In this document: piece after piece, positions 2,709-46,494 of the stretch
How positions within the stretch are numbered: the stretch's first letter is position 1
Layout of the letters: each line of letters starts with the position of its first letter
From: an uncultured Clostridia bacterium
GTDB lineage: Bacteria; Bacillota; Clostridia; Christensenellales; UBA1242
Direction: 5' to 3'
NCBI GenBank assembly: GCA_947628205.1
Contig: CANQYX010000004.1
Coordinates: forward strand, 1-46,633
Length of the DNA stretch: 46,633 bases
Notes under the pieces: model-generated
What the model was told of the DNA's origin: nothing
Database searches by the model: none
What the model saw: the letters and a program-made list of their open reading frames with translations, nothing else
Made by a program: the position numbers and the translations under genes

Positions 2709-2967
2709 GGCACTCGGTTGGTTAGGTTCACTTAACGCGGGCACTCCTAATCCCGCTAAGTCGTTCACCTAACCAACCTCGCGCCCAAGCAAATAAGGTT
2801 GAAATTTAATAATGAGGCGTTTGGTTGCTTGGTTCACTTAACGGTGGGGCAAAATCTTAGCCCCACTTCAAACGAGTTTTTGTGGGGACCCCGTTCCGCT
2901 AAAACGTTCGGCCAACCAACCTCGCGCCCTGGCAAATAAGGTTGGGATTAATGAGGTGCTTGGTTGT
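2709..2967 (+). repeat. Tandem pair of about 92-nt long-hairpin elements (family L). The second copy carries a nested G-family hairpin (2844-2893).
   Basis: Copy 1 spans 2709-2801 and copy 2 spans 2816-2967. Shared ends are ggc(a/g)(c/t)t(c/t)ggttg... and ...aaccaacctcgcgcc(c)(a/t)(a/g)gcaaataaggttg. Perfect 11-bp arms ggttggttagg (2716-2726) / cctaaccaacc (2768-2778). Homologous to 17096-17327 in the opposite orientation. Confidence 0.85.
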
Positions 2968-3232
2968 TGAATTGATGAACATTAAAAAAAATAAAAATTA
3001 AAAGTTAAAAATTATAAATAATAAATTGTAAATAATAAATTGTAAAAAGTTAAAAATTAAAAATATAAAAAACAATTAAAAAAAATAAAAAAAGTAAAAA
3101 AGTAAAAAACTAAAAAATAAACTCGTAAAAAAATAAAAAATTATAAAAAATAATAAAAATTTTATAAAAAATCATTAAAAATATAAAAAAATTAGCAAAA
3201 AATAAAAATTTTTAATAAAAAAGGAGAAATTT

Positions 3233-7900: not shown

Positions 7901-10900
7901 CTACCCACTATTTAACGGTTGAAAACAGAACGTTAAGCGTTTACAACAACCAAAGGGAATTGCAACACACGCTTAATGGCCCAACATTTAGTTATGATGT
8001 GTTGGCAAAGGGGTCGTCTAACGTTGAACAACTTTATTTAATTGGGGCAAACCAAATTACAACCAACAATCCGCTAAATTCAAACTCTTATTTGATTGTT
8101 GAAATAAACACCGACCATGCGCTTGGCATGGCATATTATGGCGCAAATGTAACAGCTTTAAGAAATTTTGCAAATTTAACCAACAGCGGCAGCAATGGCG
8201 CAACGCGGCTTTATTATGACAACAACGGAACATTAACTGGCTTAAACGCTGCACACGCAACGGGTGCAGATTATTTGGCATTTAGTTTTAAACTTGGCAC
8301 AAACACAAAATATGAAATTAAAACGGTTGGTTTAAAATATTATCAACTTGAATTATATAAAGATGTGCAAAACGAAAGTTTCTTAACCAATTTCTTTTAC
8401 GCTAACCAACCAAACAAAGAGATAACTTTGTACGATAAAGACAGCGAAATTCCAGATAGTTTGGTGCTTTCTAATGACGAAAATGCGCGTGCGGTTGCCA
8501 TCTTAAACGTGGTGGGCAACAAAACGGTTGAAGGGCTTTATGTTATTACAAGAGAATATGTTACCAACATAGAAGCGGAAGGCGAAAAGGACACCACACT
8601 ATTAGATTATTATTTCTTGGTTGATAGAAATGGCGTTATTGTTTTGTCTAACGAAATTGACGATAAATCTATAAACGGTGGCTACATTTCGCTTGGGCTA
8701 AAAAATAACGAAATTCCATATAGCAGTTTTACAACAATTGGCGTGCCTTCTGGCTCAATTAGATTTGTGGAAAACGGCGCCACGCGCGAAATTGATTATA
8801 ACGTTTATTTAACCACAAACCGCCTTCCTCTTGTTTTGAACGTTCCTTTTGGCAAATATTTCTATTCTAACGAATTTACAGTAAAACCAAACAGCGTTGC
8901 CAACATGCAAAATGGCACAAATTATTATGGCAGTGAATATTTTGCGGGCAGATTGTCGTTTGACTTATACTTTAATGATATTCAGGGGCAACTCTCAGAC
9001 ATAACAACCGTTCCCGTTCATCTGTTATATTCGGTTGAGGCAAGCGGGCAAAAAGGGTATATTTCATATAACATTAAACAGCAATTAACCAACACAGAAA
9101 TTAAAAATTGCTTTGTTGCTGGCGATGGCGAGTTTATTGCCCTTCCGGGTGACTACATTTTAGTTATTAAAGATAATGTTGAGGGCGTTAACAATGTTAA
9201 AGACCAAGCACACCAAAAAGTTATTGGCATAAGGGTAACCAGCAATCTGCCAAGCACTTCGTTGTATGCGTCAAAAAACAAAGACACAAATTCGGTTAAC
9301 GACCAACGCGAATTTGCCGATTCAAGCAACCATTACAAATTAACAACCAACAAAGAGTTTGTTGTAATTGACATGCAAAACTTGGAAGAGGAAATATTTA
9401 ACGGCACCAACATCGCCGCTGAATTAGATTTGGATTATTTGCAAATAACCCAAACTCGCGATGGGGCAAATGTAGAGTATGTAAATTACGACCACGGGCA
9501 TAAAAGCGGATTGATAAATATAGACGATAAAAGCGATTACGCCGAGCGCACCCAGCAGGGCAACAAAACTGTTAATCGTAAAATTTGGCTAAACACATAT
9601 TTAAGAGATGAAAATGGCAAGGTTATAACCAACTTCGACGAGTTGAAAAAAGAATTAAAATACACCATTAAAGTTAGATACAATGTTGTTCAGGACGACA
9701 CAAATTATAGCGATTATTATTATCATCGAGAAGAGGGACAAACCGTTCCTTCGTTTGAGCGAGAATATGTGGTTGAAATTGATAGGGTTCCGCCTCAAGC
9801 CAACACCATCAATTTGGTGGCGCAAGATAGTTTGGCAGCTTTTTACGCACAAGGTGACATGTTTGAAAACTATGTTGGCGGCTTTGATGGCAGCGAAGAA
9901 ACTGAGGATGGAATATATTTTGTTAGAACATATAAAGATTATTATTCTAGTTCAACCAAAGATAGTGCCAACCTTTATGCCTTGCATGTAAACGCCGAAA
10001 CGTTATTTTCGATGGACGATATTGGGCGAATATATACCCGCCCACTATCAGACAATTTGGCAAATTTGCGCTTAACAATTCCGGCGAATGTAAAGAGCGG
10101 AGAATATTCCGAATTCCCTTCCGCCGATAGTTATGGGGATTTTGGCTTTACTGTTGGCAATTATTATGAAATTGTGGAAAAAGATTTGGCAGGCAACTCA
10201 ACCCAATACATAGTGTTCTTTGATAGCGTTGCAAGGCAAGAAAAACTGAATATGACGCTAAAAGCCAAAATTGCCTCGGAAGGAATGGTGCAAGAAAATG
10301 CACAAATTTCGTTTAATTTTGGCGAAACGGAAAATAAAAGTTATACAATTTTCGACATTTCGTCCTGCTCAACTAACGCACCTAAGGATAAATTTTATAT
10401 ATTGATGTTGTATCGCGGTGGCGACAATATTAACACCATTAAAACGGATTTTAAAACGAGTTTTGATGATGACTTTTCAAAAAATATTGTTAAGTTTTTA
10501 ACTGAATTTGGGCCGGGTAACTACAATTTAGTTTTGCTTTCGGAAAACAATCGTGTAACCCACACTATAAATTACCTTGAAGCAATTAGCGAGCTTTTGT
10601 TAGACGGGCTTAAAAAGACAGAAAATGGGCTAGATTATTTGGATTTAGCAGGTGCAAACTATGAACAGTCATCTGGCATAACAATTTATGCTCAAACAAT
10701 AAGGGTGCAACAAAATGAGGTTGACATAACATACAATTGCAGGGTAGAAGACGGGCAATTTAATTATTACGACGAACTGGGCAATCACCCAATCAACAAC
10801 CGATTAACCGAAATTGAAGGAAAAACACTTTTGGGCAGATACCGCATTACCGTTACCGACATGTTTGGCAAAAAATATCCGGCAATTTATTTAACCTTTA

Positions 10901-15250: not shown

Positions 15251-15419
15251 TAAAATTATCTTAACAATTTTAAATTAAAATGTAAAATAAATTTTAAAAT
15301 TTTTTAAAAAATTTTTTAAAATTTGCATAAAAACACGCAAAAACCGCAAAAAATTAAAATTTTTCACGCCATTTTATGTTTTTAATAAATTTGTTTGTTT
15401 TGCAAATTTAAACAAAATT

Positions 15420-15690: not shown

Positions 15691-15725
15691 AGATTCTTCG
15701 ACGCGCTACGCTTGCTCAGAATGAC
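15691..15725. repeat. S-family hairpin unit (TC/GA variant)
   Basis: agattcttcgacgcgctacgcttgctcagaatgac. Same ends as 17013-17057, 29042-29067 and 46469-46494. Confidence 0.8.
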
Positions 15726-16090: not shown

Positions 16091-17014
16091 GTGTCTAGTT
16101 TTAAATTTTTTTTGCGTTCTAACATAAATATTATTATGATTTATCTTGTGCCAGAGGCAAATTGCGTTTGCTTAAATAAGAATTTAACTTTGTTAAAGGG
16201 GGCAAAATACAAATTGCCTAACCCTGAAAATTTTCCGTTAGTGTTTTTGGCAAAGGATAGTGTTCCGCTTACCTTAAATTTGTATGAAATTTGCTGTAAC
16301 TTTGTTAATGGCAAAAATTTGCCCTGTCAAAACGTTTGTAAATTTAATGCTGACTATTTTGTGTTTTTAAATTTTAAGCCAGTTTGCAATTCTGCTTTTC
16401 ACACAATAGATTTTAAAAATAACAAAATTGCAATAAGTTTAAGCCAAATGCTTACCGTTTCAATAAATGGGGAAGTGCTGGCTGAAATGCCAAATTTTAA
16501 TTTGACTTATAGCCATTTTGAAAAATTTAACAATTTTTGCGTTATTTATTTTTTAGGCAGGCGTAACTTTGTGGCAGTTGTTAAGGATGGCGAATTGTTT
16601 TATGCCAATTATTATGATAAATTTGAATGTTCTAGCAACGAATATTATTTTTTAACCTTTTTGAAAGATGGGCTGAATCATGGCAAAGTTTGCCATATTG
16701 GCGCGAACGAAAGCGAACAATATTTGGTGTATTTGGATGAATATAATTTAAATTTAAAGCCCGAGTTTTTGCCACACATATTTTTAGATTGTTTGCTTGC
16801 CGGCAACTATAAATATTGTAATGCGCTTTTGTGCCAAGATTTAAAACAAAATGAGCCAAGCGAAATTGCCAACTTTTTTTGCGAATTTGAAAGGTTTTAT
16901 CCGCTAGACAATTTAACTTTTGCGCTTATAAAAAAAGATGCCGTAGTTGGCATCTATCAATTTGAAATTGAAAATAATGAGATTGTAAATATTAGCGAAA
17001 CAGATTTCTTTTAG
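16091..17014 (+). CDS. Hypothetical Cys/Asn/Phe-rich protein; start uncertain (GTG 16091 or ATG 16136)
   Basis: Long ORF with no recognisable motif. Neither candidate start has a good RBS. The stop codon overlaps the first base of a repeat unit. Confidence 0.5.
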   Translation: MSSFKFFLRSNINIIMIYLVPEANCVCLNKNLTLLKGAKYKLPNPENFPLVFLAKDSVPLTLNLYEICCNFVNGKNLPCQNVCKFNADYFVFLNFKPVCNSAFHTIDFKNNKIAISLSQMLTVSINGEVLAEMPNFNLTYSHFEKFNNFCVIYFLGRRNFVAVVKDGELFYANYYDKFECSSNEYYFLTFLKDGLNHGKVCHIGANESEQYLVYLDEYNLNLKPEFLPHIFLDCLLAGNYKYCNALLCQDLKQNEPSEIANFFCEFERFYPLDNLTFALIKKDAVVGIYQFEIENNEIVNISETDFF

Positions 17015-17057
17015 ATTCTTCACAATTTTCCATAAATGGTAAATTGCTCAGAATGAC
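17013..17057. repeat. S-family hairpin unit (TC/GA variant) with an internal insertion
   Basis: agattcttc-[acaattttccataaatggtaaatt]-gctcagaatgac. Begins at the stop codon of the upstream gene. Confidence 0.75.
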
Positions 17058-17095
17058 CGCATTTCGCCGTTAAATGTGCGGACGAGTCAAATCTT

Positions 17096-17327
17096 GACCT
17101 TATCCCGAAGGCACGAGGTTGGGTGGGTGAACGTATTAGGCATCGGGGTCCCCACAAAAAGTTGTTTGAAGTGGGGGTATAGATTTTGCCCCGCCGTCTA
17201 GTGAACTCAACTAACCGAGTGCCAACGACTTAATCTTGTCCTTATTTGCCAAGGCACGAGGGTAATTGGGCGAGCGATTTAGGCGGATTAGGCCCCGCCG
17301 TTTAGCGAGCCTAATTGCCCGAGTGCC
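17096..17327 (-). repeat. Tandem pair of L-family long-hairpin elements (inverted relative to 2709-2967), one carrying a nested G-family hairpin (17144-17193)
   Basis: 17096-17222 is homologous to the reverse complement of 2816-2967. 17237-17327 is homologous to the reverse complement of 2709-2801. Arms gggtaattgggc (17260-17271) / gcctaattgccc (17309-17320). The last 17 nt overlap the ATPase 3' end. Confidence 0.85.
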
Positions 17328-19683
17328 AATTGAACATTTTGTTAAGCACCATATAAACAGGGCAAGACGCTTGCACCACAACCAGCCAAACAAGGAAATC
17401 AAACTTTTCAATGGTAACATACTTAAACAGTTCTGGCATGGTTATAACCATGAAAACAGACAACGCCAAGCACGAAATGTACATTATAATTTTGAATGGA
17501 TTAAATGGTTTGCACATTTTGTAAAGTGCCAAAAAGCCAACAACCAAAATGGCGAGAGAACACAAGGTTACAAGCACTTCGGTTGAAATGCCGGCATAAG
17601 TTTGATACATATACATTGCAATTGTAACCGCCACCAAAGTTAGGCCGGCTGGCACGGTGTTTTTTGCCACATTTGAAAGGAATTTACCTTTAATTGGGTT
17701 AGTGTTAGGTTGCAGTGCCAAACAGAACGATGGCAGGCCAATAACAAACATTTCTAGCAAAATAAATTGAATTGGGCTGAACGGATAAGTTTTGCCCGCA
17801 CATAGCACAAAAATTGAAATGCAAATTGCAAAAATTGTTTTCATAAGGAACAGCGAAGAAGATTTTTGCACGTTGTTAACCACGCGTCTGCCTTCCGCCA
17901 CCACGCTTGGCATAGAACTAAAATTGCTATCCAAAAGCACAAGCTGGCTGACCGAACGCGCGGCGTCACTGCCGGCGGCAATTGCAACCGAACAATCTGC
18001 CTCTTTAAGCGCGAGAATGTCGTTAACGCCGTCGCCCGTCATTGCAACTGTTTTGCCTTGCTGTTTAAGCGCGCGCACCAAAACGGCCTTTTGTTCCGGA
18101 CTAACGCGGCCAAAAATTGTGTATTCTGTGGCAATTTCCGCCACCTGCTCGTTGGACATGCCTTGCAAACTTATATATTTATCATAATGCTCCACGCCAA
18201 CTCGGCGCGCAACTTCGCTTACAGTAATTGGGTTGTCGCCCGAAATAATTTTTATATCCACTTCGTTTTGTTTAAACCATTCAATTGTTTTTGGTGCGTC
18301 TTTACGAATGTTGTCCTGCAACAGAACAAGTGCCACTGGCTTGCAGTTAGATGAACTGAAATTGTTGTCGCACTCGGCAAGCAGCAACACGCGATACCCA
18401 CTTAAACCATATTGTTCGGCTTGCTTTTTTAGGGCGTCGGTTGGCTTGTCCATAACATACTCATACGCGCCAAGTTTATATGCGCCCACGCTTTTAAACT
18501 TGCAACCCATAAACTTGCGTTCGCTTGAAAATGGCACACTTTTATCCGCCACATAGCAAGGTTTGCCAAAATAAGATTTAAGCGCAATTGCGGTGTGGTT
18601 GGCATCGTGAAAGGCATTAACCATTGAGGCAACAATTTTGTCCACATCTTTTAAGGTCTCTTTGCCTAAAAGCACAACATCTTTAACGCTCATCGAGCCG
18701 TTTGTTAGTGTGCCAGTTTTGTCCAGACACAGCACGTTTGTGCGCGCTAGCATTTCGATGCAATAAAGGTCTTGCACCAGCGTGCGTTTTTTGGCAAGAC
18801 GAATTACGCTAACCGCCAACGCAACCGAAGTTAAAAGGAACATGCCGGCCGGAATCATGGCGGTTATGCAACCTGCAGTTTTGGTTATAACGTTATATAT
18901 CAGGCCGCCAGTTGCTGGGTTTGCTGTGTAATATTTATAGTTGTTGTAAAGCATAACAATGGCAATCGGCACCATAAAAATTGAAATAATTTTAATAAGC
19001 GCGCGAAGCGAAGTTAACAACTCGCTTTTTGCCTGCTTAAAGGTTTTTGCTTTTTGGCTTAGTTGGGAAATGTAGTTGTCATCGCCAATTTTGTTCACCT
19101 TTGCTTTGCCCGTGCCGGAAGAAACGAAACTTCCGCCCAAAAGAGAATCTCTTTTTTGCTTTTTTACTGGCTGGCTTTCGCCCGTTAGCAAACTTTCGTT
19201 CACTTCAAGCGCACCGTCCAAAACCACGCTGTCGCACGCAATTTGCATGCCTGGGTTTAAAACCAAAACATCATCTAACACAACTTCGGTTTTGTAAACC
19301 TCTTCTTCCTCGCCATCGCGAATAACTTTTGTGAAGTTGGAATTGGTTAGCGACAATTTGTCCATGGTTTTTTTGGCGCGAATTTCTTGAAAAATGCCAA
19401 TCGCCGTGTTTAAAATAACAATAACCATAAACATAAGGTCGCTAAACGCTTTAACATAGCAAAGCGCAACCGCAACCACCAAACAGGTTATGTTAAAAAA
19501 TGTAAAAATGTTTTTTGCAAAAATGCTGCCCAAACTTTTGCTGGTTTTTATGTTTGAAACATTGGTTAAGCCGGCCTCAACGCGCTTGGCAACTTGCGCC
19601 GAACTTAACCCCTCACTAGCCTTGGGGTTAAAGCGCGAAATGGCTTGTTTATCCCCTTTAAAGTTTTTATTTTTCTTTTTCAT
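17311..19683 (-). CDS. Cation-translocating P-type ATPase (E1-E2, HAD-IC type); ion specificity not assignable
   Basis: TGES, the CLDKTGTLTNG phosphorylation motif, MTGDGVNDILALKEADCSVAI hinge and multiple TM helices. 790 aa. Confidence 0.9.
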   Translation of the reverse strand: MKKKNKNFKGDKQAISRFNPKASEGLSSAQVAKRVEAGLTNVSNIKTSKSLGSIFAKNIFTFFNITCLVVAVALCYVKAFSDLMFMVIVILNTAIGIFQEIRAKKTMDKLSLTNSNFTKVIRDGEEEEVYKTEVVLDDVLVLNPGMQIACDSVVLDGALEVNESLLTGESQPVKKQKRDSLLGGSFVSSGTGKAKVNKIGDDNYISQLSQKAKTFKQAKSELLTSLRALIKIISIFMVPIAIVMLYNNYKYYTANPATGGLIYNVITKTAGCITAMIPAGMFLLTSVALAVSVIRLAKKRTLVQDLYCIEMLARTNVLCLDKTGTLTNGSMSVKDVVLLGKETLKDVDKIVASMVNAFHDANHTAIALKSYFGKPCYVADKSVPFSSERKFMGCKFKSVGAYKLGAYEYVMDKPTDALKKQAEQYGLSGYRVLLLAECDNNFSSSNCKPVALVLLQDNIRKDAPKTIEWFKQNEVDIKIISGDNPITVSEVARRVGVEHYDKYISLQGMSNEQVAEIATEYTIFGRVSPEQKAVLVRALKQQGKTVAMTGDGVNDILALKEADCSVAIAAGSDAARSVSQLVLLDSNFSSMPSVVAEGRRVVNNVQKSSSLFLMKTIFAICISIFVLCAGKTYPFSPIQFILLEMFVIGLPSFCLALQPNTNPIKGKFLSNVAKNTVPAGLTLVAVTIAMYMYQTYAGISTEVLVTLCSLAILVVGFLALYKMCKPFNPFKIIMYISCLALSVFMVITMPELFKYVTIEKFDFLVWLVVVQASCPVYMVLNKMFNWHSGN

Positions 19684-19878: not shown

Positions 19879-20394
19879 ATGGGATTTGAAAATATTGAAC
19901 TACGGGTTAAGCAACCTTATCCGCAAATTGAGGGCGCAACAGATGATTTGCAAACTGTGGCGGTGTTAAAAGATTTGGCAAACGGGCGAGATGGTGAATT
20001 GTGCGCAATTTTAACCTACATTTTTCAATCGACAATTGCGGATAAAACTAACGATGACATAGGCAAAATTTTTGAAGAAATTGCAATTGTGGAGATGTGC
20101 CATTTGGGGCTTCTTATGCACGCAATTTGCGATTTTGGCGGCACTCCAAAATATGAAATAAGCAGCGGAGCACCATTTAATATTAATAACGTGAATTATA
20201 ACACCAAGTTAAAGGACATTCTGGATATAGACATACGCGAAGAACAGGGTGCAATTGCAAATTACACTCAAGCCATAAAAATGGTTAAAAACCAAAGTTT
20301 AAAAGATTTATTTGCACGCATAATTTTGGACGAACAAAAACATATTGATGCATTAAAACAAGTCCGCGCCCAGGTTCAATTTTTGTCAGTTTAA
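19879..20394 (+). CDS. CotJC-like / manganese-catalase-family ferritin-like protein
   Basis: Blocks GRDGELCAILTYIFQ, IAIVEMCHLGLLMHAI, DIREEQGAIANYTQAI and ILDEQKHIDALKQV parallel the four-helix metal-binding blocks of B. subtilis CotJC. Start moved to ATG 19879 (RBS aaggggat) from the TTG at 19816. Confidence 0.6.
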   Translation: MGFENIELRVKQPYPQIEGATDDLQTVAVLKDLANGRDGELCAILTYIFQSTIADKTNDDIGKIFEEIAIVEMCHLGLLMHAICDFGGTPKYEISSGAPFNINNVNYNTKLKDILDIDIREEQGAIANYTQAIKMVKNQSLKDLFARIILDEQKHIDALKQVRAQVQFLSV

Positions 20395-20600
20395 CAAAAA
20401 ATTATTAAAAATTTTAAAAAATAGTAAAAATTAAATAAAAAATACAAAAAATTAATAAAAAATTAAATATTTTTAAAAATTTTTGTAAAAACGTTAAAAA
20501 AATAAATTAAATTTGCAAAAAATCATAAAAAATTAAAATAAAAATATAAAAAATAATAAAAATTTTAATAAAAATGCAATAATTTGATAAAAATTTATAA

Positions 20601-21392: not shown

Positions 21393-21416
21393 AAAAATAC
21401 GCATTTTTGCGTATTG
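21393..21416 (-). terminator. Hairpin identical to 20601-20624; likely terminator of the minus-strand PRC-barrel gene
   Basis: aaaaaatacgcatttttgcgtatt. A T-run is present only on the minus strand. Confidence 0.55.
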
Positions 21417-21443
21417 TCATGTTGAGCGTAAGCGAAACATCTA
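21417..21443. repeat. S-family hairpin unit (GT/AC variant)
   Basis: gtcatgttgagcgtaagcgaaacatct. Same as the reverse complement of 44613-44639. Confidence 0.8.
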
Positions 21444-27708: not shown

Positions 27709-28854
27709 ATGTTTAAATCTCGAACAAAATTTTTAACAATTATGGCATGCCTTTCATTTTTGCTGGCATGCGGAACATTTGTTTTTTGCTTAGATCGCCA
27801 ACAACTCGATGGCAGTGTTAACATTCAATACACCGCGTCGAAAGATTTTTTAACTTACAAATTAAATACTGCACAGAATGGTTGGGTTGTAACTGGTTTT
27901 TCTGAAAACAAAAGAGAAGGTAGAACCGCAATTGAAATCCCCAATGAGCATATTCAAGACGGTAAATCCTTACCTGTTACAGAGGTTGGTTCAAGCGCGT
28001 TCTACTCCAAGTCTATTTTTACAAGTGTAAAGATTGGGGATAATGTAACGACAATTGCACTTTATGCATTTGGAGGCTGTACCGGTTTAACAAATTTGGC
28101 AATAGGAAATAAAGTAACTATAATTAACGCATCCGCTTTTAGCAATTGCACAAGTTTAACACATTTATCAATCCCCTCTAGTGTAACGACTATTGATACA
28201 AATGCATTTTATAATTGCAAAGGAATAAAAGGGGATCTTATCATTCCAGATAGTGTAACCCGTTTAGGTAATGGTGCGTTTCAATCTTGTGCGGGGATAG
28301 AAAATGTAATTATAGGGTCGGGTCTTAAAACCATGGGAAATGATGTTTTTGACGATTGTTCTTCTTTAAAAACTGTAACGATTAATTTCGGAATTACATA
28401 TATAGGAAGTCACGCTTTTGCTGATTGCACTCAATTGATAGACGTTCAAATGCCGGAAAGCATAATTGATATTTATTCTTATGCATTTTACCGTTGTTCT
28501 GCATTAAAAAGAATCAATATCCCAACTAGTGTAGTCAATATAAAAGTAGATGCTTTTTGTGGAACAGGATTAACCAGTGTAACTATACCAGCTGCTGTAA
28601 ATTTTATTGATGCCTTCTTTAATTGTGAAAAATTAAACGAAGTGATTATTGATAGTCCAACAATATATAAAGCTGTCTCGAGTGAATATGACAGTAATGG
28701 AAGTTTAACATATTACATCAAAACCGGCGGAACAATTAAAATATTACAAACAATTGACGATAATTCAAACACTTATTTGAACGATAGAGCAAATTTTACC
28801 AAATCTACAACTACAATTGATGGAAAATCGTATAACGTTTACACAAAAAAATAA
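27709..28854 (+). CDS. BspA-type leucine-rich-repeat (LRR_5) surface protein, probable lipoprotein
   Basis: N-terminus MFKSRTKFLTIMACLSFLLACGT has a lipobox-like LLAC. Repeated IP.SVT.I...AF..C..L modules (e.g. VTEVGSSAFYS, VTTIALYAFGGCTGLTNLAIGNKVTIINASAFSNCTSLTHLSIPSSVTTIDTNAFYNC). RBS ggaggaaag. Confidence 0.8.
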   Translation: MFKSRTKFLTIMACLSFLLACGTFVFCLDRQQLDGSVNIQYTASKDFLTYKLNTAQNGWVVTGFSENKREGRTAIEIPNEHIQDGKSLPVTEVGSSAFYSKSIFTSVKIGDNVTTIALYAFGGCTGLTNLAIGNKVTIINASAFSNCTSLTHLSIPSSVTTIDTNAFYNCKGIKGDLIIPDSVTRLGNGAFQSCAGIENVIIGSGLKTMGNDVFDDCSSLKTVTINFGITYIGSHAFADCTQLIDVQMPESIIDIYSYAFYRCSALKRINIPTSVVNIKVDAFCGTGLTSVTIPAAVNFIDAFFNCEKLNEVIIDSPTIYKAVSSEYDSNGSLTYYIKTGGTIKILQTIDDNSNTYLNDRANFTKSTTTIDGKSYNVYTKK

Positions 28855-28875
28855 GAGGCAATTGCCTCTTTTTTA
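28854..28875 (+). terminator. Terminator of the LRR gene
   Basis: agaggcaa/ttgcctct palindrome followed by ttttttatt. Confidence 0.75.
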
Positions 28876-28878
28876 TTA

Positions 28879-29170
28879 GTCATGTTGAGCGAACGCGGGG
28901 CCCCCACAAGAACTTTGTTTGCAGTGGGGTTATAAGTGAGTCGAAACAACTAGATCCTTCGCTTTTACCCCATTTCAAATAAAATTCTCATGGGGACCCC
29001 GAACGCTCAGGATGACTTGTTCAACACAATGCACACATATTGTCATTCTGAGCGAAGTGAAGAATCTAAAAAAAGAGGCGAAATGCCTCTTTTTATGTTG
29101 AGATTGCCACGGCAAAATCATGGTGATTTTGCCTCGCAATGACAAGATCCTTCGACAGGCTCAGGATGAC
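28879..29170. repeat. Mosaic cluster of nested S-, G- and A-family hairpin units
   Basis: Six parts. 28879-28951: GT/AC S-unit split by a G-unit (28896-28930). 28952-29016: CC/GG S-unit split by a G-unit (28967-29001). 29042-29067: TC/GA S-unit. 29070-29095: extra hairpin aaaaaagaggcgaaatgcctcttttt. 29100-29143: 44-nt A-unit. 29145-29170: CC/GG S-unit ending 3 nt from the pheT stop. Confidence 0.85.
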
Positions 29171-29173: not shown

Positions 29174-31549
29174 TTATTGCCTTAAAGTAAAGCCGGCGCG
29201 CTCAATTGTTTTTATGAAATATGCGCTGAATTTTTCTATGTCGGTTGAAGTTAGCGTTTTATCCTTTGGCGTTATTGTTATATTTATGGTGTAACTTATT
29301 TTGCCCTTTAAATCGGCGTCATTAGTGTAAACATCTTTTAGGTTATATTCAAGCAAATAGTTGCAGCGGAAGTTTTTAATTGCGCGCTCAAGGGTGGCAT
29401 ATTTTGTGTTAGATTCTGCCACAAAGTTGAAATCTAGGCTGACCGCTTGGAACTTGCTGGTTGGCACAATTTTTTGAGTTTGTTTTGGTGCGGAGAGCAA
29501 TTTGTTTATATCCAATTCAAGCGCGGCAAAATGTTTGCGCTTATCTATCTTTTTGGCTATTGTTGGGTGCAAAATGCCCATTTCGCCAATTGTTAAATTG
29601 CCCGAAGTTATTGCGCAAGAATTTATTGGGTGCAAAATTTTGCTGGTTGAAGCGTTTTCAAAATTAATTTCGCAACCAACAAGTGAGTGGGCAATATGCT
29701 CAACAATTTGTTTAAGTTTAAAGTATAATGCTTTTTCGCTTTCTGGGCTGGCAAGCACAATTGAAAGTTTTTTCTTTTCCACAACCAAATTGTTTTGGTC
29801 TAGTTCGTCAAAGGTGCGGCCGATTTCAAAAATTTGAATGTTCGCAAACTTATTTTTGTTTTCGTCGGCAAATTTAAGCAAGGTTGGGGTTAGGGTAACG
29901 CGCAGGCCGCTCTGTCCGCTTTTTGAGGCGTCCATAAGGTGAACAACCGGTTTATCCTCAATGCCAAGCGATTTGTTGAAGTCGGCATAATTCCAAACAT
30001 AACTATGCACCTCGTTCAAGCCAAACTTGCTTGCAAGCGCGTATTTAATTTCATATTCAATTTCGTGGGTTGGAATTTTATCCACCGGCGTTAGTGGCAT
30101 GGACATGGTTGAACTTTTGATGTTGTCGTAGCCATACATTCTAAACACTTCTTCAACCAAATCTTCTTTAATAGAAACATCTTTTGTGCCGCGGTAACTT
30201 GGCACAATTACCTCCAATTTCTGCCCGCTAACTTTAACTGAAAAGCCCAGGCGAGTTAAAATATCCGCAATTTGTTTTGCGCTAAGCTCAACACCGCCGC
30301 GGCGCGAAATGAAGTCCGCATCCGTTTTTATTGTGTGGGTTGGATATTTAAAATTGTAGACATCCGTGAAACTTGATGTAACTTTCACATCGCCGTCAAT
30401 TTGCTTTAAAAGATATAGCAAGCGGGCAAGCGCGGTTTGGGTCATTTCTGGGTCAAGCGATTTTTCGTAACGTAGGCTTGCATCGGTTATAAGGCCAATT
30501 TTGCGGCTGGTTTTGCGGATGGACATGCTATCGAAACAGGCACTTTCCAAAAGTAAACTATTTGTGCTTTCGCTTATGCTATCCTTTAAGCCACCCTTAA
30601 TGCCGGCAATTGCAACCGGCTCGCGCTTATCGTCACAAATTACAACCGAATTTGGCTCGATTGTGTGGGTGGTGTGTTCAAGCGTTTCCATGGCAAGCGG
30701 CTTTGCGTTTTCAATAACGGTTATTCCACGCACTTTGGCATGGTCAAACGCGTGCATTGGCTGGCCAAGTTCAAGCATTAAATAGTTGGTCAAGTCGGCA
30801 AGCAGGTTGATGTCGCGCATGCCGCAATAGTTAAGACGAAGTTTAATAAGCGGCGTGGCAAACTTTTTTGAAATGTTTTCCACCGCAATGCCCGAATATC
30901 TAAAACAATTTTTGGTTTCCACCTTAATGTTGAGTTTTGGCAAATTTTCGTAAGCCGACAAATCGTCCACAGCAAGCGGTTTAAGCGGGCGGTTGAAAAT
31001 TGCAGCAAACTCGCGCGCAATGCCATAATGCCCCCACAAATCCGGGCGGTTGGTTAGTGACTTATTGTCAATTTCAATAAGCACATCGTCAACTGGCAAG
31101 AAATCGTGAATGTCCGTGCCAATTTTTGCACTATCGTCAAGTTCAACAATGCCAGAAGTGTCCGCCTCAATGCCAAGTTCGTGGCCGCCGCAGCACATGC
31201 CGTTGCTGTCTATGCCAACCATTTTAACTGGCTTAATTTTCATGTCCTTAACTTGTCCACCGACGCGCGCAAAAAAGGTTTTAAGCCCAACGCGCACATT
31301 TGGCGCACTGCAAACAACTTGCACAGGCGCACCCGAGCCATCGTCCACCGTTAAAACGTGCAAATGGTCGCTTTTCGGGTGGTTTTCCACCGACAAAATT
31401 TTGGCAACCACAATGTTTTTTAGGTTGCTGCCCAGATGGGTTACGCTTTCAATTTCGGCTGTACTCAGACCAAAGCGCTTGGTGAGTTCATCAACTTCAA
31501 TTCCGCTTAGGTCAACAAATTCTTTTATCCAATTTAGTGATATTAACAT
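29174..31549 (-). CDS. pheT: Phenylalanine--tRNA ligase beta subunit
   Basis: MLISLNWIKEFV start, tRNA-binding domain, B3/4 and B5 domains, C-terminal FDX-ACB-like region. 791 aa, directly downstream of pheS. Confidence 0.95.
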   Translation of the reverse strand: MLISLNWIKEFVDLSGIEVDELTKRFGLSTAEIESVTHLGSNLKNIVVAKILSVENHPKSDHLHVLTVDDGSGAPVQVVCSAPNVRVGLKTFFARVGGQVKDMKIKPVKMVGIDSNGMCCGGHELGIEADTSGIVELDDSAKIGTDIHDFLPVDDVLIEIDNKSLTNRPDLWGHYGIAREFAAIFNRPLKPLAVDDLSAYENLPKLNIKVETKNCFRYSGIAVENISKKFATPLIKLRLNYCGMRDINLLADLTNYLMLELGQPMHAFDHAKVRGITVIENAKPLAMETLEHTTHTIEPNSVVICDDKREPVAIAGIKGGLKDSISESTNSLLLESACFDSMSIRKTSRKIGLITDASLRYEKSLDPEMTQTALARLLYLLKQIDGDVKVTSSFTDVYNFKYPTHTIKTDADFISRRGGVELSAKQIADILTRLGFSVKVSGQKLEVIVPSYRGTKDVSIKEDLVEEVFRMYGYDNIKSSTMSMPLTPVDKIPTHEIEYEIKYALASKFGLNEVHSYVWNYADFNKSLGIEDKPVVHLMDASKSGQSGLRVTLTPTLLKFADENKNKFANIQIFEIGRTFDELDQNNLVVEKKKLSIVLASPESEKALYFKLKQIVEHIAHSLVGCEINFENASTSKILHPINSCAITSGNLTIGEMGILHPTIAKKIDKRKHFAALELDINKLLSAPKQTQKIVPTSKFQAVSLDFNFVAESNTKYATLERAIKNFRCNYLLEYNLKDVYTNDADLKGKISYTINITITPKDKTLTSTDIEKFSAYFIKTIERAGFTLRQ

Positions 31550-32629: not shown

Positions 32630-34033
32630 TTATTCCGCAACGGGCAAATTGTCGCCCGAATTGTCGTCTTTGTCGTCATCTGTTTTATCTACAACCTTAC
32701 CGTTTAATGCTTTATTTAAATTTTCCAAAGCGGTGGATTTTTTAGTTTTTTGTTTTACATCAATTTCGCTTGAAGAAATATCAATTTTTTGCTGAACTTC
32801 ACTTGTTTCATAATCTAAGCCGACAAGGTCGCCAACATCGTCAAGTTTTTTGGCAATTTTTTGGCTAGATTTTGTGGCTTGTTCAAGGTTGGTGCTTGCA
32901 TCTGCCAATTTGCCTTGAGATTTTTCTAGCAACGCAACATATTTTTCAAACTCTTGTTTAAGGGTGGAGAGGAACTGCCAAATTTCGCTGCTGCGCTTTT
33001 GAATATACAGCGTTTTAAAGCCAAGTTGCAAGCTGTTTAATAGCGCGGTCAGCGTGGTTGGCCCGCACACCACAACTTTAAATTGATTTTGCAGCGTATC
33101 CAACAATTCAACGTTTCTAACCACTTCGGCATAAAGCCCTTCAATTGGCAAAAACATAACGGCAAAGTCGGTGGTTTCGGGTACATTGATATATTTTTCC
33201 TTAATAGATTTTGCCTCTTCCTTAATGCGCTTATAAAGGTTTTTTTGGCATTTTTCAATAAGGTCTTTATCTATAGTGTCGCTCGCCTCAACCAGTTTGT
33301 TGTAATCTTCAAGCGGAAATTTGCTATCTATTGGCAGATAGACATCATGCCCGTCTTTACCCGGCATGGAAACAACAAAATCCACGCGCTCTTTGCTGTT
33401 GGGTGTAACTTGAACTTGTGATTTGTATTGATTTGGCGCAAGAACTTGTTCAAGCAAGGTGGAAAGCGCAACCTCGCCCCAATTGCCGCGCGTTTTAACG
33501 TTGGAAAGCACCTTTTTAAGGTCGCCAACTCCAACCGCTAAACTTTTCATTTCGCCCAAGCCTAAATTTACGCTTTCTAGGCTCTGTTGAATTTTACTAA
33601 AACTATCGTTAAGCCGTTGCGAAAGCGAAGTGTTAAGTTTTTCATCCACCGTTTGGCGCATTTTTTCAAGCGCTTTTTCGTTTTCCTCGCGCATGTTGGT
33701 TAGCGTTTGATTTACTTGCAAGGTAAGTTTTTCAATCCTATCCTCATTTCTAAAAGTTAAATCGTTCACGCGCTTTGAAATGGCTTCAAACTCCTGTTTT
33801 TGCACCAAACTTAAATTGTTTATTGTGTTTTGAGTGGTTAACTCGCTAGCCCTTATTGTTTGAATAAACACATTTTGCAAATTGGTGTTGTTATCCTTTA
33901 CATTTTGCACAATTTGCTTTAACGAACCATCGTCTGCCGTGCCGGTTGGCTTCTTTTTATATAACACAACAAAAACAATTGTGGAGATAAGCCACGCACC
34001 AGCAAATATTGAGCCTAAAATGATTATTGACAT
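32630..34033 (-). CDS. rmuC: DNA recombination protein RmuC
   Basis: N-terminal TM helix, long coiled coil, then the C-terminal RmuC nuclease-like block (VDFVVSMPGKDGHDVYLPIDSKFPLEDY ... FAVMFLPIEGLYAEV ... VVVCGPTTLTALLNSLQLGF). Start set at ATG 34033 (MSIIILG, RBS aaggat) rather than the 47-codon upstream extension. Confidence 0.8.
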   Translation of the reverse strand: MSIIILGSIFAGAWLISTIVFVVLYKKKPTGTADDGSLKQIVQNVKDNNTNLQNVFIQTIRASELTTQNTINNLSLVQKQEFEAISKRVNDLTFRNEDRIEKLTLQVNQTLTNMREENEKALEKMRQTVDEKLNTSLSQRLNDSFSKIQQSLESVNLGLGEMKSLAVGVGDLKKVLSNVKTRGNWGEVALSTLLEQVLAPNQYKSQVQVTPNSKERVDFVVSMPGKDGHDVYLPIDSKFPLEDYNKLVEASDTIDKDLIEKCQKNLYKRIKEEAKSIKEKYINVPETTDFAVMFLPIEGLYAEVVRNVELLDTLQNQFKVVVCGPTTLTALLNSLQLGFKTLYIQKRSSEIWQFLSTLKQEFEKYVALLEKSQGKLADASTNLEQATKSSQKIAKKLDDVGDLVGLDYETSEVQQKIDISSSEIDVKQKTKKSTALENLNKALNGKVVDKTDDDKDDNSGDNLPVAE

Positions 34034-34208
34034 AGAAATCCTTAAAAAATATACTAAAATATATATAAATATATAAAAATAAAAGAAAATTGTCAAGTGA
34101 AAAGCGGAAATTTGCGCCCGATTTGCAAAATGTGGGCAAAATTTATATAAAATTTTACCATTTTGCCAAAACATTTGCTTTTTTAAAAATTTTGGATAAA
34201 ATATTTAT

Positions 34209-35153
34209 ATGTTAAATTTAATTGTTGCACCTTATGAAATAAGCGAAAATGCCGAAAAATATGCAAAACGTCTTGTCAGTTTTTTGAAGGAACAAAAAAT
34301 TGAATATGCGGTTTATTTCCACACCAGTTTAGACGATGTTGCAAAAAGCGTAAATGAAAGTTTGCTTTTGGGCGAAACTGAGTTTGTTATTGTTGGCGAA
34401 GATGCCACTGTTAATGCGTTTATAAATTCGGTTAAAGATTTGTCTAAAATTAAGCTTGGTATTGTGCCAACTTCAAATCATGACGATTTTGCCAAATTTT
34501 TAGGGCTTAGCACCAACCCAATTCAGGCAATAAAAGATATTTTGCTAAAACAAGTTGAGCCGGTGGACTATTTGGTTTGTAACGACATTAAAGTTGTTAA
34601 CAACATTTTAATTGGGGCAAGTGTGGAAGTGTTTGAAAAATATAACGAACACAGGGTTAAAAACTTTATAACCCAAAAACTTTCTATTATGCAATATGCT
34701 GGCAATTTTGAGGGCGTGGAATTGACATTAGATTTTAAGGGCAACAAAAATGTAACCGAAACGATTTACGAACTTTCAATTGCCAACGGTGGTTTAAGCC
34801 AGGGCAAAAAAATAAGCCCGCTTGCCAATGTGCAGGATGGTCTGTTTAATTTGAACTATACTGCCTTGCCAGAAAAAGAGCAAAGAAAAAAATATTTGTC
34901 TTTATTTAAAAATGGCGAACAAATATATAAAGAGGCAACAAATCAGTTTTGGCTGGAAAGTTTAAAAATAATGCAAGCGGAAAATAAAATTAAGGCCTTG
35001 GTTGATGGCCGCGTTGTTAATTTTGAAAATATGAATGTTTCGGTTGTTGAAAATGGGTTAAAGTTATTTAGAAATTTGAACAACGAAAAATTTGTTGAAA
35101 ACAATTTTGAAAAAAATAAAAAAGAATCTGAGGCAAAACCTAAAAGAAAATAA
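34209..35153 (+). CDS. Diacylglycerol/lipid kinase-fold protein (YegS/BmrU-like) with degenerate signature motifs
   Basis: Layout ..FVIVGEDATVNAFINSV....KLGIVPTSNHDDFAKFLGL.. parallels DAGK_cat ..vv.GGDGTvnevvngl....lgiiP.GTgNDfar.lgi.. However, GGDGT reads GEDAT and GTGND reads TSNHDD. Confidence 0.5.
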   Translation: MLNLIVAPYEISENAEKYAKRLVSFLKEQKIEYAVYFHTSLDDVAKSVNESLLLGETEFVIVGEDATVNAFINSVKDLSKIKLGIVPTSNHDDFAKFLGLSTNPIQAIKDILLKQVEPVDYLVCNDIKVVNNILIGASVEVFEKYNEHRVKNFITQKLSIMQYAGNFEGVELTLDFKGNKNVTETIYELSIANGGLSQGKKISPLANVQDGLFNLNYTALPEKEQRKKYLSLFKNGEQIYKEATNQFWLESLKIMQAENKIKALVDGRVVNFENMNVSVVENGLKLFRNLNNEKFVENNFEKNKKESEAKPKRK

Positions 35154-35241
35154 TTTTAAAAAATTGCAAAAAATTTTTAAAAAATTAAAAAAATAGCCAA
35201 AAATTCAAAAAAATACAAAAAAACAGTTAAAAAATTGAAAA

Positions 35242-35270
35242 ATGCAAAATTTTTTTGCATTTTTTGTTTT
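35242..35270 (+). terminator. Terminator after the lipid-kinase-like gene
   Basis: atgcaaaa-ttt-ttttgcat stem followed by tttttgtttttt. Confidence 0.6.
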
Positions 35271-35381: not shown

Positions 35382-35573
35382 ATGATTGAAAGTTTTGACA
35401 TGTTATATAAACGCCTTTTAAATTTGGAAAAGAGGTTGGAAAAATATTATAAAAAAATTTACATCGAAAACGAATTAGATTTTGTTATGAACGGAACCTA
35501 TATTTTAAAAGATGAATTAGATAAAATTTTAGACGGAAGTTACATCTTAGGAGGGAGTGATGGAGAGAATTGA
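35382..35573 (+). CDS. Small hypothetical protein (63 aa) translationally coupled to the repeat protein
   Basis: ATG 35382 with RBS gggagaaaaaatt. Coiled-coil-like N-terminus. Its TGA stop (35571-35573) lies 14 nt inside the next gene. Confidence 0.5.
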   Translation: MIESFDMLYKRLLNLEKRLEKYYKKIYIENELDFVMNGTYILKDELDKILDGSYILGGSDGEN

Positions 35574-37395
35574 AGAATTAAAGCAAGAGCTTTTAAAGCA
35601 AAAAAAGGCAATTGAAACGAAACATGGAAAGGTTGTGGTTGCAAATTTAAACCCCAGCCCAAGCGAAATTACGGCGGGAATAGACACTATTTCTGCAATT
35701 GAGGCAAATTTGGACGATATAACTGCAACACAAGCCGATGTGCTTAAAGGCAAAAAGTTTATAGATTCCACTGGCAAAATGGCTGAGGGGAATTTAAAAA
35801 ATGTTGATTGGCGTAGCACAACCGCCAGTGTGGCAGATGTGGTTGAGGGCAAGAAATTTGTAGATTCTAATGGCGACCTGCAAACTGGCGAAATGAAGGA
35901 CGTTGACTGGGAAAACACCACAGCAACGCAAGCCGATGTTTTAAGCGGAAAAAAATTTGTTGATGCAGCGGGTGAACTGGTTGATGGCGCGTTAGAAAAA
36001 ACAGATTTTTCGGTTGTAACTGCTGGCGAACAAGACGTGTTGCAAGGCAAGCAATTTTATAATTCAACTGGCGCGCTGGTTGATGGCACAATGAAGGACG
36101 TTGACTGGGAAAACACCACAGCAACGCAAGCCGATGTTTTAAGCGGAAAAAAATTTATAGACCAAAATGGCGATTTAATTTTAGGCACAATGAAAGATGT
36201 TAACTGGGAGGCAACTACAGCCACAACCGCCGATGTTTTGCAGGGCAAACAATTTGTAGATTCTTTAGGCAATTTAGTTGAAGGCAGTTTAAAGGATTTG
36301 GAAATAGAAAGTGTAACTGCAACCGAGCAGGATGTAAAGCAGGGTAAAAAGTTTTTAACCGCTTCGGGCGAACTCGCCGAAGGCCAATTAGAAGAAGTAG
36401 ATTTTAGTGTGGTTACAGCCGAAGAGAACGATGTAAAACTGGGCAAACAGTTTTTAGATTCAACCGGACAATTGAAAGACGGAACTTTTGAGGCAGCCGA
36501 TTGTAGCGAAGTTACCGCAACCGAGCAAGATGTAAAACAGGGCAAAAAGTTTTTAACCGCTTCTGGCGAGCTAAAAGAGGGCACGCTAAAAGATAATTCG
36601 GATTTATACATATACATGCCTGTAAAAAAGACCGCCGACCCTATAGCCGAAATAGATTATGTTTTTGCCGATGACCTCACAGAGGTTAAAATGGGGTTGT
36701 TTAACTCTACGCCATACAAAATGAACATCTGGTTAAACCCAAACACCACGCACATTAACGATGGTGCGTTTAGCGCGTATTTCCGCATCAGCTTAATGAA
36801 TTTTAACGAGCTTTCGTCGCTTAAGTTTATTGGCAAAAGTGCTTGCAGTTCGGTTTATGGGGTGGACACAATGAACATACCGGAGAGCGTAACAACGATT
36901 GAAGCACGCGGGTTGGAAAACTGCGCACTAAACTCGTCCGGCATTAGATTTACCGCCAAAATGTATACACTTGGAGATTATCCTTTTGGTTGCACCACAA
37001 ACTATGTGCCACTTGACACAATCGAGTTCGATGCAGCGAGTAGAATTTTGATAACAAGCGTTGGAATGTGCTATGGCTTTACATGCGACCGAGAAATTGT
37101 TTTGCCAAGTACCACCAAATATATAAGTGATAACACTTTTTCCTTGTCGGAATACAACAGCATTGTTCTGCCAGAAAAACTTATAGACGTTGGCCGAACT
37201 TCATTCTATAACCCAGAAAGAACAAACTGCAAAATGGTTACGTTCAAAGGCGAAAAACCGCCTAAATTTGACTCGTTAGTTTTCCATCCTAACATACAAC
37301 CAGTGTTAAAGATTTACGTTCCTGATGTGTCTGTTCAAGAGTATAAAAACGCGTTGCCAGATTATAAAATTTACCCTATGAGCGAAAGGCCATAA
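35560..37395 (+). CDS. Signal-less protein: coiled-coil N-terminus, nine 33-aa tandem repeats, C-terminal BspA-type LRR domain
   Basis: RBS aggaggga 5 nt before ATG 35560. Repeats of consensus TAT.aDVl.GKkF.ds.G.l.eGtmkdvdw.. The C-terminal region (NIPESVTTIEARGLENC..., VLPSTTKYISDNTFS..., VLPEKLIDVGRTSFY) resembles LRR_5. Confidence 0.75.
   Translation: MERIEELKQELLKQKKAIETKHGKVVVANLNPSPSEITAGIDTISAIEANLDDITATQADVLKGKKFIDSTGKMAEGNLKNVDWRSTTASVADVVEGKKFVDSNGDLQTGEMKDVDWENTTATQADVLSGKKFVDAAGELVDGALEKTDFSVVTAGEQDVLQGKQFYNSTGALVDGTMKDVDWENTTATQADVLSGKKFIDQNGDLILGTMKDVNWEATTATTADVLQGKQFVDSLGNLVEGSLKDLEIESVTATEQDVKQGKKFLTASGELAEGQLEEVDFSVVTAEENDVKLGKQFLDSTGQLKDGTFEAADCSEVTATEQDVKQGKKFLTASGELKEGTLKDNSDLYIYMPVKKTADPIAEIDYVFADDLTEVKMGLFNSTPYKMNIWLNPNTTHINDGAFSAYFRISLMNFNELSSLKFIGKSACSSVYGVDTMNIPESVTTIEARGLENCALNSSGIRFTAKMYTLGDYPFGCTTNYVPLDTIEFDAASRILITSVGMCYGFTCDREIVLPSTTKYISDNTFSLSEYNSIVLPEKLIDVGRTSFYNPERTNCKMVTFKGEKPPKFDSLVFHPNIQPVLKIYVPDVSVQEYKNALPDYKIYPMSERP
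35722..36612 (+). repeat. Nine in-frame 99-bp tandem repeats inside the CDS
   Basis: Unit length is exactly 33 codons. A 66-bp stretch is identical at 35893-35958 and 36091-36156 (198 bp apart). A second near-identical pair lies at about 36313 and about 36511 (also 198 bp apart). Confidence 0.9.
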
Positions 37396-44586: not shown

Positions 44587-44689
44587 GTTATCCTGAACGA
44601 AGTGAAGGATCTAGATGTTTCGCTAACGCTCAACATGACATCGTCGCAACACGCCCCGATTATGTCATCCTGAGCTTGCCGAAGGATCT
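44587..44689. repeat. Three S-family hairpin units
   Basis: 44587-44612 gttatcctgaacgaagtgaaggatct (CC/GG). 44613-44639 agatgtttcgctaacgctcaacatgac (GT/AC, inverted). 44664-44689 gtcatcctgagcttgccgaaggatct (CC/GG). Confidence 0.85.
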
Positions 44690-46242: not shown

Positions 46243-46494
46243 AGATTCTTTGACTCGTTTATTTACCCCATATCAAAGCAAGTTCTCATGGGGACCCCGA
46301 ATTACCCCACTGCCGAACAAAGTTCTTGTGGGGACCCCGAGATCCTTCACTTCGTTAGGATGACATAAGGTTGAGATTGCCACGGTGGTTTGATGGTCAA
46401 ACCGCCTCGCAATGACATGCTGGCGGTGTCATCCTGAGCGAACGAAGTGAGTCGAAGGATCTGGATTTAGATTCTTCGCTTTGCTCAGAATGAC
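46243..46494. repeat. Mosaic cluster of S-, G- and A-family hairpin units
   Basis: Seven parts. 46243-46257: truncated S half. 46265-46299 and 46304-46339: G-units. 46340-46364: CC/GG S-unit. 46373-46416: 44-nt A-unit. 46428-46462: CC/GG S-unit. 46469-46494: TC/GA S-unit. Confidence 0.85.

Follow-up and report, generated by a model that had tools for sequence, protein, structure and literature searches.

What are the short palindromic units that recur between the genes of an uncultured Clostridia bacterium, and which enzyme, if any, reads them? The question arose at positions 28879-29170 of a 46,633-nt stretch of DNA (contig CANQYX010000004.1 of assembly GCA_947628205.1), which in its whole length is called the window here. 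A preliminary description had sorted the units into four families, S, G, A and L, distributed over seven intergenic loci. We found that S and A are built on one base module, that this module occurs in many phyla, and that in other genomes inverted copies of it bracket the gene of a small GIY-YIG protein. The units S and A are probably single-stranded DNA (ssDNA) hairpins of the Ssn-related-motif (SRM) class, read by a cognate Ssn nuclease.

Searching the window, we found nine exact matches to the strict S pattern (GTCATNNTGAGC..GAANNATC) versus 0.00 expected from 100 shuffles, and relaxed matching added five units, two of them holding a G unit, two degenerate and one a half unit. The G tag TGGGGACCCCG gave six matches with at most one mismatch versus 0.18 expected, the A end CTCGCAATGAC gave two exact matches, and hairpins of the L type occurred four times, in two blocks. 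The map thus drawn holds 13 S units and one half unit, 2 A units, 6 G units and two L composites. The claim that the repeats stand at seven intergenic loci, far above chance, therefore stood; no further S, A, G or L unit was found in the window beyond these loci, relaxed searches included.

Read on the same strand, S has the form GTC-ATNNT-GA-GC..GC-GA-AN'N'AT-CT and A the form GTC-ATTGC-GA-GG..CC-GTG-GCAAT-CT. Since both read GTC-AT-NNN-GA-(variable hairpin)-N'N'N'-AT-CT, A is a variant of S and not a family of its own. To characterize S we used 160 matches from about 120 loci in many phyla, taken from the matches listed in phyletic scans in which the patterns were run over one genome per species. 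The free positions NN and N'N' were complementary in 142 of the 160, with six pair types represented (CC/GG 69, TC/GA 40, GC/GC 17, GT/AC 10, CT/AG 4 and GG/CC 1). Among 80 distinct 26-nt units the proposed helix was 97% paired, pair 9-25 being CG in 39, UA in 24 and GC in 14, and sliding the register made pairing collapse to 19-51%; the observed covariation score was reached by none of 500 shuffles. The GTC tag was invariant in these 80 sequences and was preceded mostly by T or C. All S and A units of the window start with GTCAT, except for GTTAT in one degenerate copy, and every unit ends in ..AT-C-T, with the C directly 3' of the palindrome (consensus ATCTC). Across 147 A copies from many phyla, among the matches listed, almost every copy has a terminal hairpin of its own on a constant base module. 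The inner stems of the two A copies in the window differ at most positions and both are fully paired, and a third copy, in locus L002, is compensatory as well. The conserved TGAG/CGAA step of S places tandem G.A mismatches within 5'-YGAR-3' on either strand, and the apex found most often is GC-GNA-GC. Mini-hairpins with a GNA loop and sheared GA pairs in a YGAR context are classic stable DNA motifs, and both are underrated by standard energy tables. The predicted folding of A and L is strong (z -3.6 to -4.5).

No recurrent neighbour protein family stood out around randomly sampled S units. Examining the open reading frames (ORFs) bracketed by inverted units, we found two small ones, in Oscillospiraceae and in Cyclobacteriaceae, that carry a GIY-YIG domain (PF01541). 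A phmmer search over all ORFs in 445 unit-selected loci yielded 8 GIY-YIG homologues, and each of the 8 genes has a sense unit directly before its start and an antisense unit directly after its stop. As the 445 loci had been chosen for their units, we drew an independent sample of 80 metagenome loci, picked solely by similarity to an alignment of the GIY-YIG protein. The GTCATNNNGA module lay within 150 nt of the gene in 62 of the 71 protein-selected loci for which both flanks were available; a sense module was found upstream in 38 of 75 and an antisense module downstream in 47 of 76, versus a prediction of about 0.04 per flank and orientation from the background rate of the module (0.49/kb in both orientations, more than 400 nt from the gene). 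Both A-type (CGAGG 69, CGAGC 66) and S-type modules (TGAGC 42, TGAGG 25) were represented, and NTS-type modules, described below, were rare. The GIY-YIG proteins consist of a single domain of 97-101 aa, in which the invariant residues Y7, Y18 and E66 match the spacing of Y6, Y17 and E64 in the nuclease SsnA, the first sequence having one extra residue before E (PMC11893778).

The arrangement of these loci is that of a system published in 2025. In that work (Chenal et al., Nat Commun 16:2388, PMC11893778), oriented dRS3 elements (NTS, CGTCATTCCCGCGMAVGCGGGAATCYRG) and related SRM hairpins flank ssnA, which encodes a GIY-YIG protein (cd10448) of one domain and 94 aa. Binding of the hairpin by SsnA requires ssDNA and one particular orientation, and the cut falls a few nucleotides upstream; cleavage depends most on the three bases preceding the palindrome and binding most on the C that follows it, removal or extension of the loop is tolerated, and in N. 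meningitidis SsnA lowers transformation by NTS-bearing DNA (PMC11893778). The association of S and A with GIY-YIG genes independently reproduces the SRM-ssnA-SRM architecture. Like NTS and other SRM hairpins, S and A have an unpaired H-GTC tag, (C/T)GTC, directly 5' of the palindrome, a stem starting with AT whose pairing is borne out by the covariation of NN, and a C immediately 3' of the palindrome. They are likewise intergenic and clustered, run to hundreds of copies in many phyla and have an extensible loop that is not read, and in other genomes their inverted copies bracket a single-domain GIY-YIG gene of about 95 aa. They differ from SRM/NTS in several ways. Instead of a perfect, GC-rich stem of 8 bp, S has a GNA triloop and two G.A mismatches that are conserved; A combines an internal loop with a terminal hairpin that varies throughout; the host is an uncultured Gram-positive spore former; and G modules are nested in the loops of its units. 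In a viral collection we found 30 ssn loci, 9 of them with the module. At two ssn loci (L131 and L340) the ends of the ORF run through unit sequence, which yields the peptides DSSLRSE* and VIARSEATWQS.

The SRM class takes in the (C/T)GTC-tagged CGTC REPs as well as the NTS/dRS3 repeats of Neisseria. S and A also resemble the CGTC REPs (Di Nocera et al. 2013, BMC Genomics 14:522, PMC3733652), which carry a CGTC or TGTC tag, a stem of 8-9 positions starting from AT, a short loop of 4-5 and a 3-nt tail, occur predominantly as head-to-head dimers in five phyla with no associated transposase, and include dRS3 of Neisseria and RPE-4 and RPE-6 of Rickettsia. The tag of S and A is CGTC or TGTC, the S stem has 9 positions including the two G.A, the loop is short, head-to-head dimers are often heterodimers, and the units are intergenic with occasional overlap of coding ends and, again, no associated transposase. 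Unlike those REPs, S and A have the tail CTN instead of CCA, S has conserved mismatches in its stem, and the peptide footprints (VILSEAKNL, VIARSEA..) are not in the published table of REP-encoded peptides; the five phyla of that survey include no Firmicutes, whereas the present host is one of the Clostridia (PMC3733652).

We propose that an S or A unit presents to its nuclease first the GTC tag, which is 5' and unpaired, and then a basal stem of 5 bp (AT-NNN) whose bases may vary as long as they pair. Above this stem come the conserved GA step, built as tandem sheared G.A in S and as an internal loop in A, and a terminal hairpin free in both sequence and length; the unit closes with a 3' AT-C-T end in which the C directly follows the palindrome. 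Whenever the DNA becomes single-stranded, i.e. during replication, transformation, conjugation or repair, the cognate small GIY-YIG Ssn nuclease would bind the hairpin and nick the strand that forms it, a few nucleotides to the 5' side of the tag, sparing duplex DNA, RNA and the opposite strand. The units would be non-autonomous, their nuclease being encoded at another place in the genome by a gene that inverted units bracket. As the nuclease would read the base module alone, the apical loop would be free to carry other modules, which would account for the presence of G inside S. Binding and cleavage confined to ssDNA, independence of the loop and restriction of transformation are taken from the literature on N. 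meningitidis SsnA and not from S or A; for the present host we infer a cognate Ssn in the genome, its cutting of S and A, and the mode in which the units multiply.

Several observations weigh against this proposal. The published SRM motif, HGTCWYN(0-2)YYVSBRHN(0-5)WNVSBRGN(0-2)RNCYNB, matches NTS and neither S nor A, with 0 matches in the window; it is an operational search string derived from 29 genomes, not a biochemical definition. Because both units fail it, we file S and A as a variant of SRM; the 2025 system explains the core of the finding. On four features, namely size, Pfam domain, spacing of catalytic residues and gene architecture, the GIY-YIG family is a putative member of cd10448/Ssn; no NCBIfam model matches the family, and the nearest solved structure, UPF0213 protein BH0048, was hit at E = 1e-8 only. 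Being the top matches to a single Oscillospiraceae sequence, the 80 protein-selected loci sample one part of the family. Within the 46.6-kb window we found neither an ssn gene nor a remnant of one. The S hairpins fold weakly with standard DNA energy parameters (z -1.5 to +0.7), which may be due to the underrating of GNA and sheared-GA motifs in the energy tables. Finally, G and L are separate, orphan hairpin families, and the Ssn model does not explain them.

The position of the units raises the question of whether they act mainly as RNA, as stem-loops in 3' untranslated regions (3'-UTRs) that make the upstream mRNA more stable, attenuate or end transcription, or yield small RNAs, their spread being a by-product. 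The S and A units at 29101-29170 and the S units at 44587-44689 are probably transcribed, given that they stand between a stop codon (of pheT and of the dUTPase gene, respectively) and a terminator-like hairpin. S and A units are mostly intergenic, at convergent sites over divergent ones by 34 to 5, and E. coli REPs are reported to have 3'-UTR effects. Yet orientation relative to the upstream gene showed no clear bias (62 sense, 46 antisense), and the units do not have the GC-rich stem followed by a T run of an intrinsic terminator; ATCT and variable sequence follow them, with no U-tract, and the terminator-like hairpins at 28853-28870 and 29070-29096 are structures distinct from the units. 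Rfam gave 0 matches at the gathering threshold for the window and 14 unit-rich loci, permissive thresholds adding only terminator-driven noise. The apical GNA triloop, the YGAR sheared-GA context and the lack of a clear orientation bias favour DNA rather than RNA, SsnA of N. meningitidis does not bind the RNA form of its hairpin (PMC11893778), and a role as RNA would not explain the bracketing of a nuclease gene. We consider it unlikely that RNA is the main level of action, and a secondary effect of the units as RNA may exist.

The preliminary description had looked to a REP-associated tyrosine transposase (RAYT, an IS200-like Y1 HUH enzyme) encoded elsewhere in the genome, which would mobilise the units in trans as REP or REPIN elements. 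Short tagged hairpins at gene 3' ends, in head-to-head pairs, mosaic and multicopy, are indeed traits of REPs and BIMEs, the units are absent from the orthologous site of a relative (L001, see below), and some Y1 classes are flanked by atypical hairpins (PMC6006769). As in REPtrons (REP/REPIN-RAYT), a single-copy nuclease gene is flanked by tagged hairpins that are multicopy elsewhere and would serve as its ssDNA substrate. The enzyme bracketed by S and A, however, has the GIY-YIG fold instead of the HUH Y1 fold, in 8 of 8 unit-selected and 62 of 71 protein-selected loci; across about 120 loci, a regular expression for the Y..NP-type Y1 motif picked out no ORF close to an S unit, the tag reads (T/C)GTC and not GT[AG]G, and CGTC-type REPs have never been found flanking tyrosine transposase or RAYT genes (PMC3733652). 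Moreover, the members of a pair usually differ in their NN alleles and are not identical dimer partners, so that they form no long hairpin of the REPIN type. We abandoned the RAYT partner and regard it as very unlikely. Chances are slimmer still that the units are passive palindromes served by no dedicated protein, which arise by slippage, template switching and recombination between copies and covary through quasipalindrome correction instead of selection. Half units and arrangements of a 5' half plus a whole unit (46243-46262; L143, L160, L164 and L183), a tandem duplication of 105 nt in about 8 copies bounded by S (L109) and composite blocks duplicated whole would fit such an origin, but template-switch correction would erase the G.A mismatches and unpaired tags, which are the most conserved positions across phyla; near-identical base modules at very different G+C argue for a conserved reader, and the association with Ssn genes is strong. 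Hammerhead and other small ribozymes, k-turns, integron attC sites, dif/Xer sites and CRISPR repeats were dropped on anatomy alone.

Returning to the proposed Ssn-read hairpins, the nesting of units in the window bears on what their loops can hold. The preliminary description had the units mutually nested and split by one another. Units do lie inside the loops of others, and the nesting is one-way: G is found within S or L, never the reverse. The S unit at 28952-29016 is split by G as had been stated, with an intact base module around a 38-nt insert, and the S unit at 28879-28951 holds a G as well, which is inverted in window coordinates only; relative to S the two G units have the same orientation. 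Both cases of G in L are real nestings and not separate events, for 2700-2975 aligns over its full length with the reverse complement of 17055-17335, and the two are copies of one composite of about 255 nt (L, linker, L with G). The S(G) composite, too, is itself a repeated unit, as sequencing depth over 28879-28940 is 5-7x that of the flanks in the assembled contigs of four rabbit-gut runs, and other metagenome contigs join the same G to S units with different stems at the same loop position; no joints skipping the 28879-29170 cluster were found in the assembled contigs of these runs. The idea of repeated targeted insertion into hairpin loops was not borne out: one of the three nestings is a duplicate, S(G) is a multicopy unit, and tolerance of the loop is expected because cleavage by SsnA is independent of loop identity and tolerates loop extensions (PMC11893778). 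The nesting is better read as loop tolerance together with propagation of composites.

The same nest exists outside the window. A clean S(G), with the same relative orientation, adjoins an ssn gene in an Acidobacterium locus (L272), and two degenerate ones were found in L273 and L286. In an alphaproteobacterial genome (L278, about 7520-7610) a G unit stands between GTCATTCCCGC and GCGGGAATGAC, which are the halves of a palindrome of the NTS/CGTC-1 type, so that G nests in a classical SRM type as well. The half units, the half-plus-whole arrangements and the 105-nt duplication of L109 show recombination or slippage at loops. In L109, a Bacteroidaceae locus, the last ~25 nt of a gene, the spacer and an S unit are repeated in tandem between 3400 and 4260, and the array looks like slippage bounded by S.

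Where S, A, G and L cluster at gene 3' ends, they form mosaic elements of the BIME/NIME type, and the view of the units as REP-like hairpin modules that are non-autonomous and make up such mosaics held up. Like BIMEs, NIMEs and RIMEs these clusters consist of unrelated short hairpin modules in alternating orientation, form composite blocks near gene 3' ends, and have composites that are themselves repeated. Unlike those, their modules also lie inside the loops of other modules, and the REPs of E. coli BIMEs, unlike S and A, are tagged with GTAG and linked to RAYT. No transposase or other mobilising enzyme was found among the ORFs scanned in the window, in line with the original view of the units as non-autonomous.

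The main cluster starts on the plus strand with the S unit at 28879-28951, which holds a G unit in its loop (28896-28933, minus) and whose 3' arm is degenerate (AACAACTA); the source metagenome contains multiple copies of this composite. It forms a head-to-head dimer with the minus-strand S unit at 28952-29016, whose G unit lies at 28965-29001 (plus). A canonical 26-nt S unit follows at 29042-29067 (plus). The A unit at 29101-29143 (minus), GTC-ATTGC-GA-(10-bp hairpin)-GTG-GCAAT-CT in S sense, lies between the pheT stop (29174-29176) and the terminator-like hairpin 29070-29096, and the S unit at 29145-29170 (minus), in pheT sense, lies 3 nt past that stop. Head-to-head dimers are also formed at 44587-44689, by an S unit with a degenerate 5' part (GTTAT..TGAAC; 44587-44612, plus) and a second one at 44613-44639 (minus) across the junction ATCT|AGAT, with a further S unit at 44664-44689 (plus) upstream of the terminator-like hairpin common to the dUTPase and M1 peptidase genes. 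At 46243-46494, direct reading revealed the 3' half of a long-loop S unit whose 5' half is missing, a rearranged composite (46243-46262, minus); it is followed by two G units in tandem (46263-46299 and 46303-46339, plus), a degenerate S unit in which CTAAC replaces TGAGC (46340-46364, minus), an A unit whose inner stem is fully compensatory relative to that of 29101-29143 (46374-46416, minus), and a dimer of a long-loop S unit (..GAGTC GAAGGATCT; 46428-46462, plus) with one at 46469-46494 (minus).

Single S units were found at 15691-15725 (minus; a pattern match, GTCATTCTGAGC, a 14-nt loop and GAAGAATCT), at 17013-17057 (minus), with a 24-nt loop containing a mini-hairpin, and at 21416-21442 (plus), a variant with a GT/AC stem directly past the terminator-like hairpin of the 21075-21374 gene. 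The L composite at 2709-2967 (plus), between sleB-like and ypeB, consists of a long hairpin L, a linker (..GCAAATAAGG..) and a second L with a G unit (2857-2893) in its apical loop. The second copy, at 17066-17327 (minus), is reversed, shows compensatory stem changes and carries its G at 17144-17180. The distances from stop codons given in the preliminary description were confirmed: apart from the 3 nt at pheT, the first L composite begins 1 nt past the sleB-like stop (2707), the S unit at 17013-17057 overlaps the stop codon 17012-17014, and the second L composite overlaps, at 17311-17327, the stop and last codons of a P-type ATPase gene. Repeat units thus supply the stop or last codons of two window genes, that of the P-type ATPase (17311-17327) and a 307-aa ORF (17012-17014). 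S and A units also account for many spurious short ORFs, leaving the footprints VILSEAKNL, RFFASLRMT, VIARSEA and LRRFAPRND.

The units are not confined to the window, in agreement with an expectation of the preliminary description, as S, A and G each occur in many phyla. Among the matches listed, S was found in Nitrospirota, Chloroflexota, Bacteroidota, Acidobacteriota, Patescibacteria, Omnitrophota, several Proteobacteria and Clostridia, and A in Patescibacteria, Chloroflexota, Bacteroidota, Oscillospiraceae, Neisseriaceae, Treponema, Planctomycetota and others. To ask whether sites are filled or empty in related genomes, as had been suggested, we compared the nearest relative, an uncultured Clostridia genome from rabbit gut in a species-representative collection (locus L001; PheT 89% identical). 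Its site downstream of pheT is empty, with no unit separating the pheT stop from the terminator-like hairpin that directly follows. In other relatives A and G units stand at a different place, between pheS and pheT, or S units are found elsewhere; relatives further off are labelled Candidatus Onthoplasma or Christensenella. The density of S and A units is 0.26/kb in the window versus 0.005/kb in 597 kb from relatives, which indicates that their expansion is recent and lineage-specific. In other assemblies of the same strain, reached via the dUTPase protein, no empty site was found, and the spacing between the dUTPase and M1 peptidase genes equals that of the window.

The consensus of G reads CCA-CCCCA-(variable 6-8 bp stem and loop)-TGGGG-ACCCCG-G. 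Its stem extends 6-8 bp past CCCCA/TGGGG, pairing there being 85% versus 36% in shuffled sequences, and the flanking CCA and G are conserved. Among the matches listed (loci L205-L324), G was found above all in Acidobacteriaceae, and also in Clostridia, Thermus, Nitrospirota and Saccharibacteria. Around G units we found no neighbour gene that recurs or is bracketed, and no Rfam family covers G. Asking whether G might be an Ssn hairpin, we found no G tag in 295 kb of Ssn loci, and a literature search with literal S and G strings returned chance primer matches only. L was seen in the window only, the comparison covering 597 kb from relatives.

The host is an uncultured spore-forming, Gram-positive member of the Clostridia from rabbit gut, and the window sequence is present in four rabbit-gut metagenome runs. 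With a G+C of 37.9%, the window carries genes for an amidase, spoIIR, sleB-like, ypeB, a gerA operon, pheS/pheT, RmuC, nusG, L11, L1, dUTPase and M1 peptidase. The sleB-like gene and ypeB, usually operon neighbours, are parted by a 525-nt spacer (2708-3232) that contains the L composite and a long A-tract region. A-tracts (repeats of the AAAAAT type) phased at ~10-11 nt lie upstream of genes in the intergenic regions 1868-1990, 2981-3230, 15278-15330, 20390-20590 and 35140-35250, which suggests intrinsically curved promoter DNA. Next to pheS/pheT, in a genome rich in repeats, lies an RmuC-family gene (32630-34174); a part in keeping inversions at short inverted repeats in check is ascribed to RmuC. 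The gene of a BspA-type leucine-rich-repeat protein at 35557-37395 contains eight coding tandem repeats of 99 nt, and a second BspA-type gene (27709-28854) directly adjoins the main repeat cluster. The 2793-aa ORF at 4939-13320 had no Pfam match at E <= 0.001.

For the host and its relatives, the S and A units mark recent intergenic turnover in uncultured gut Clostridia. Ssn enzymes are the only known site-specific nucleases that cut ssDNA exclusively and are under development as tools, and each new hairpin class is a candidate for a new Ssn specificity. S and A are very common across phyla yet escape the published motif, and therefore point to a large uncharted part of the Ssn family; the conserved tandem G.A mismatches and the freely exchangeable terminal hairpin are features that can be tested easily. 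A bolder possibility, which we put forward tentatively and hold to be rather doubtful, is that G is an undescribed second family of tagged hairpins with its own cognate ssDNA enzyme, settling preferentially, and always in one relative orientation, in the unread loops of Ssn hairpins and so creating sites read by two systems, and that, independently, S and A are Ssn specificity classes missed by the published motif. If this were true, the reach of Ssn, with Gram-positive spore formers and candidate phyla taken in, would far exceed what has been reported. In any case the orphan G family offers a concrete lead to another hairpin-reading system.

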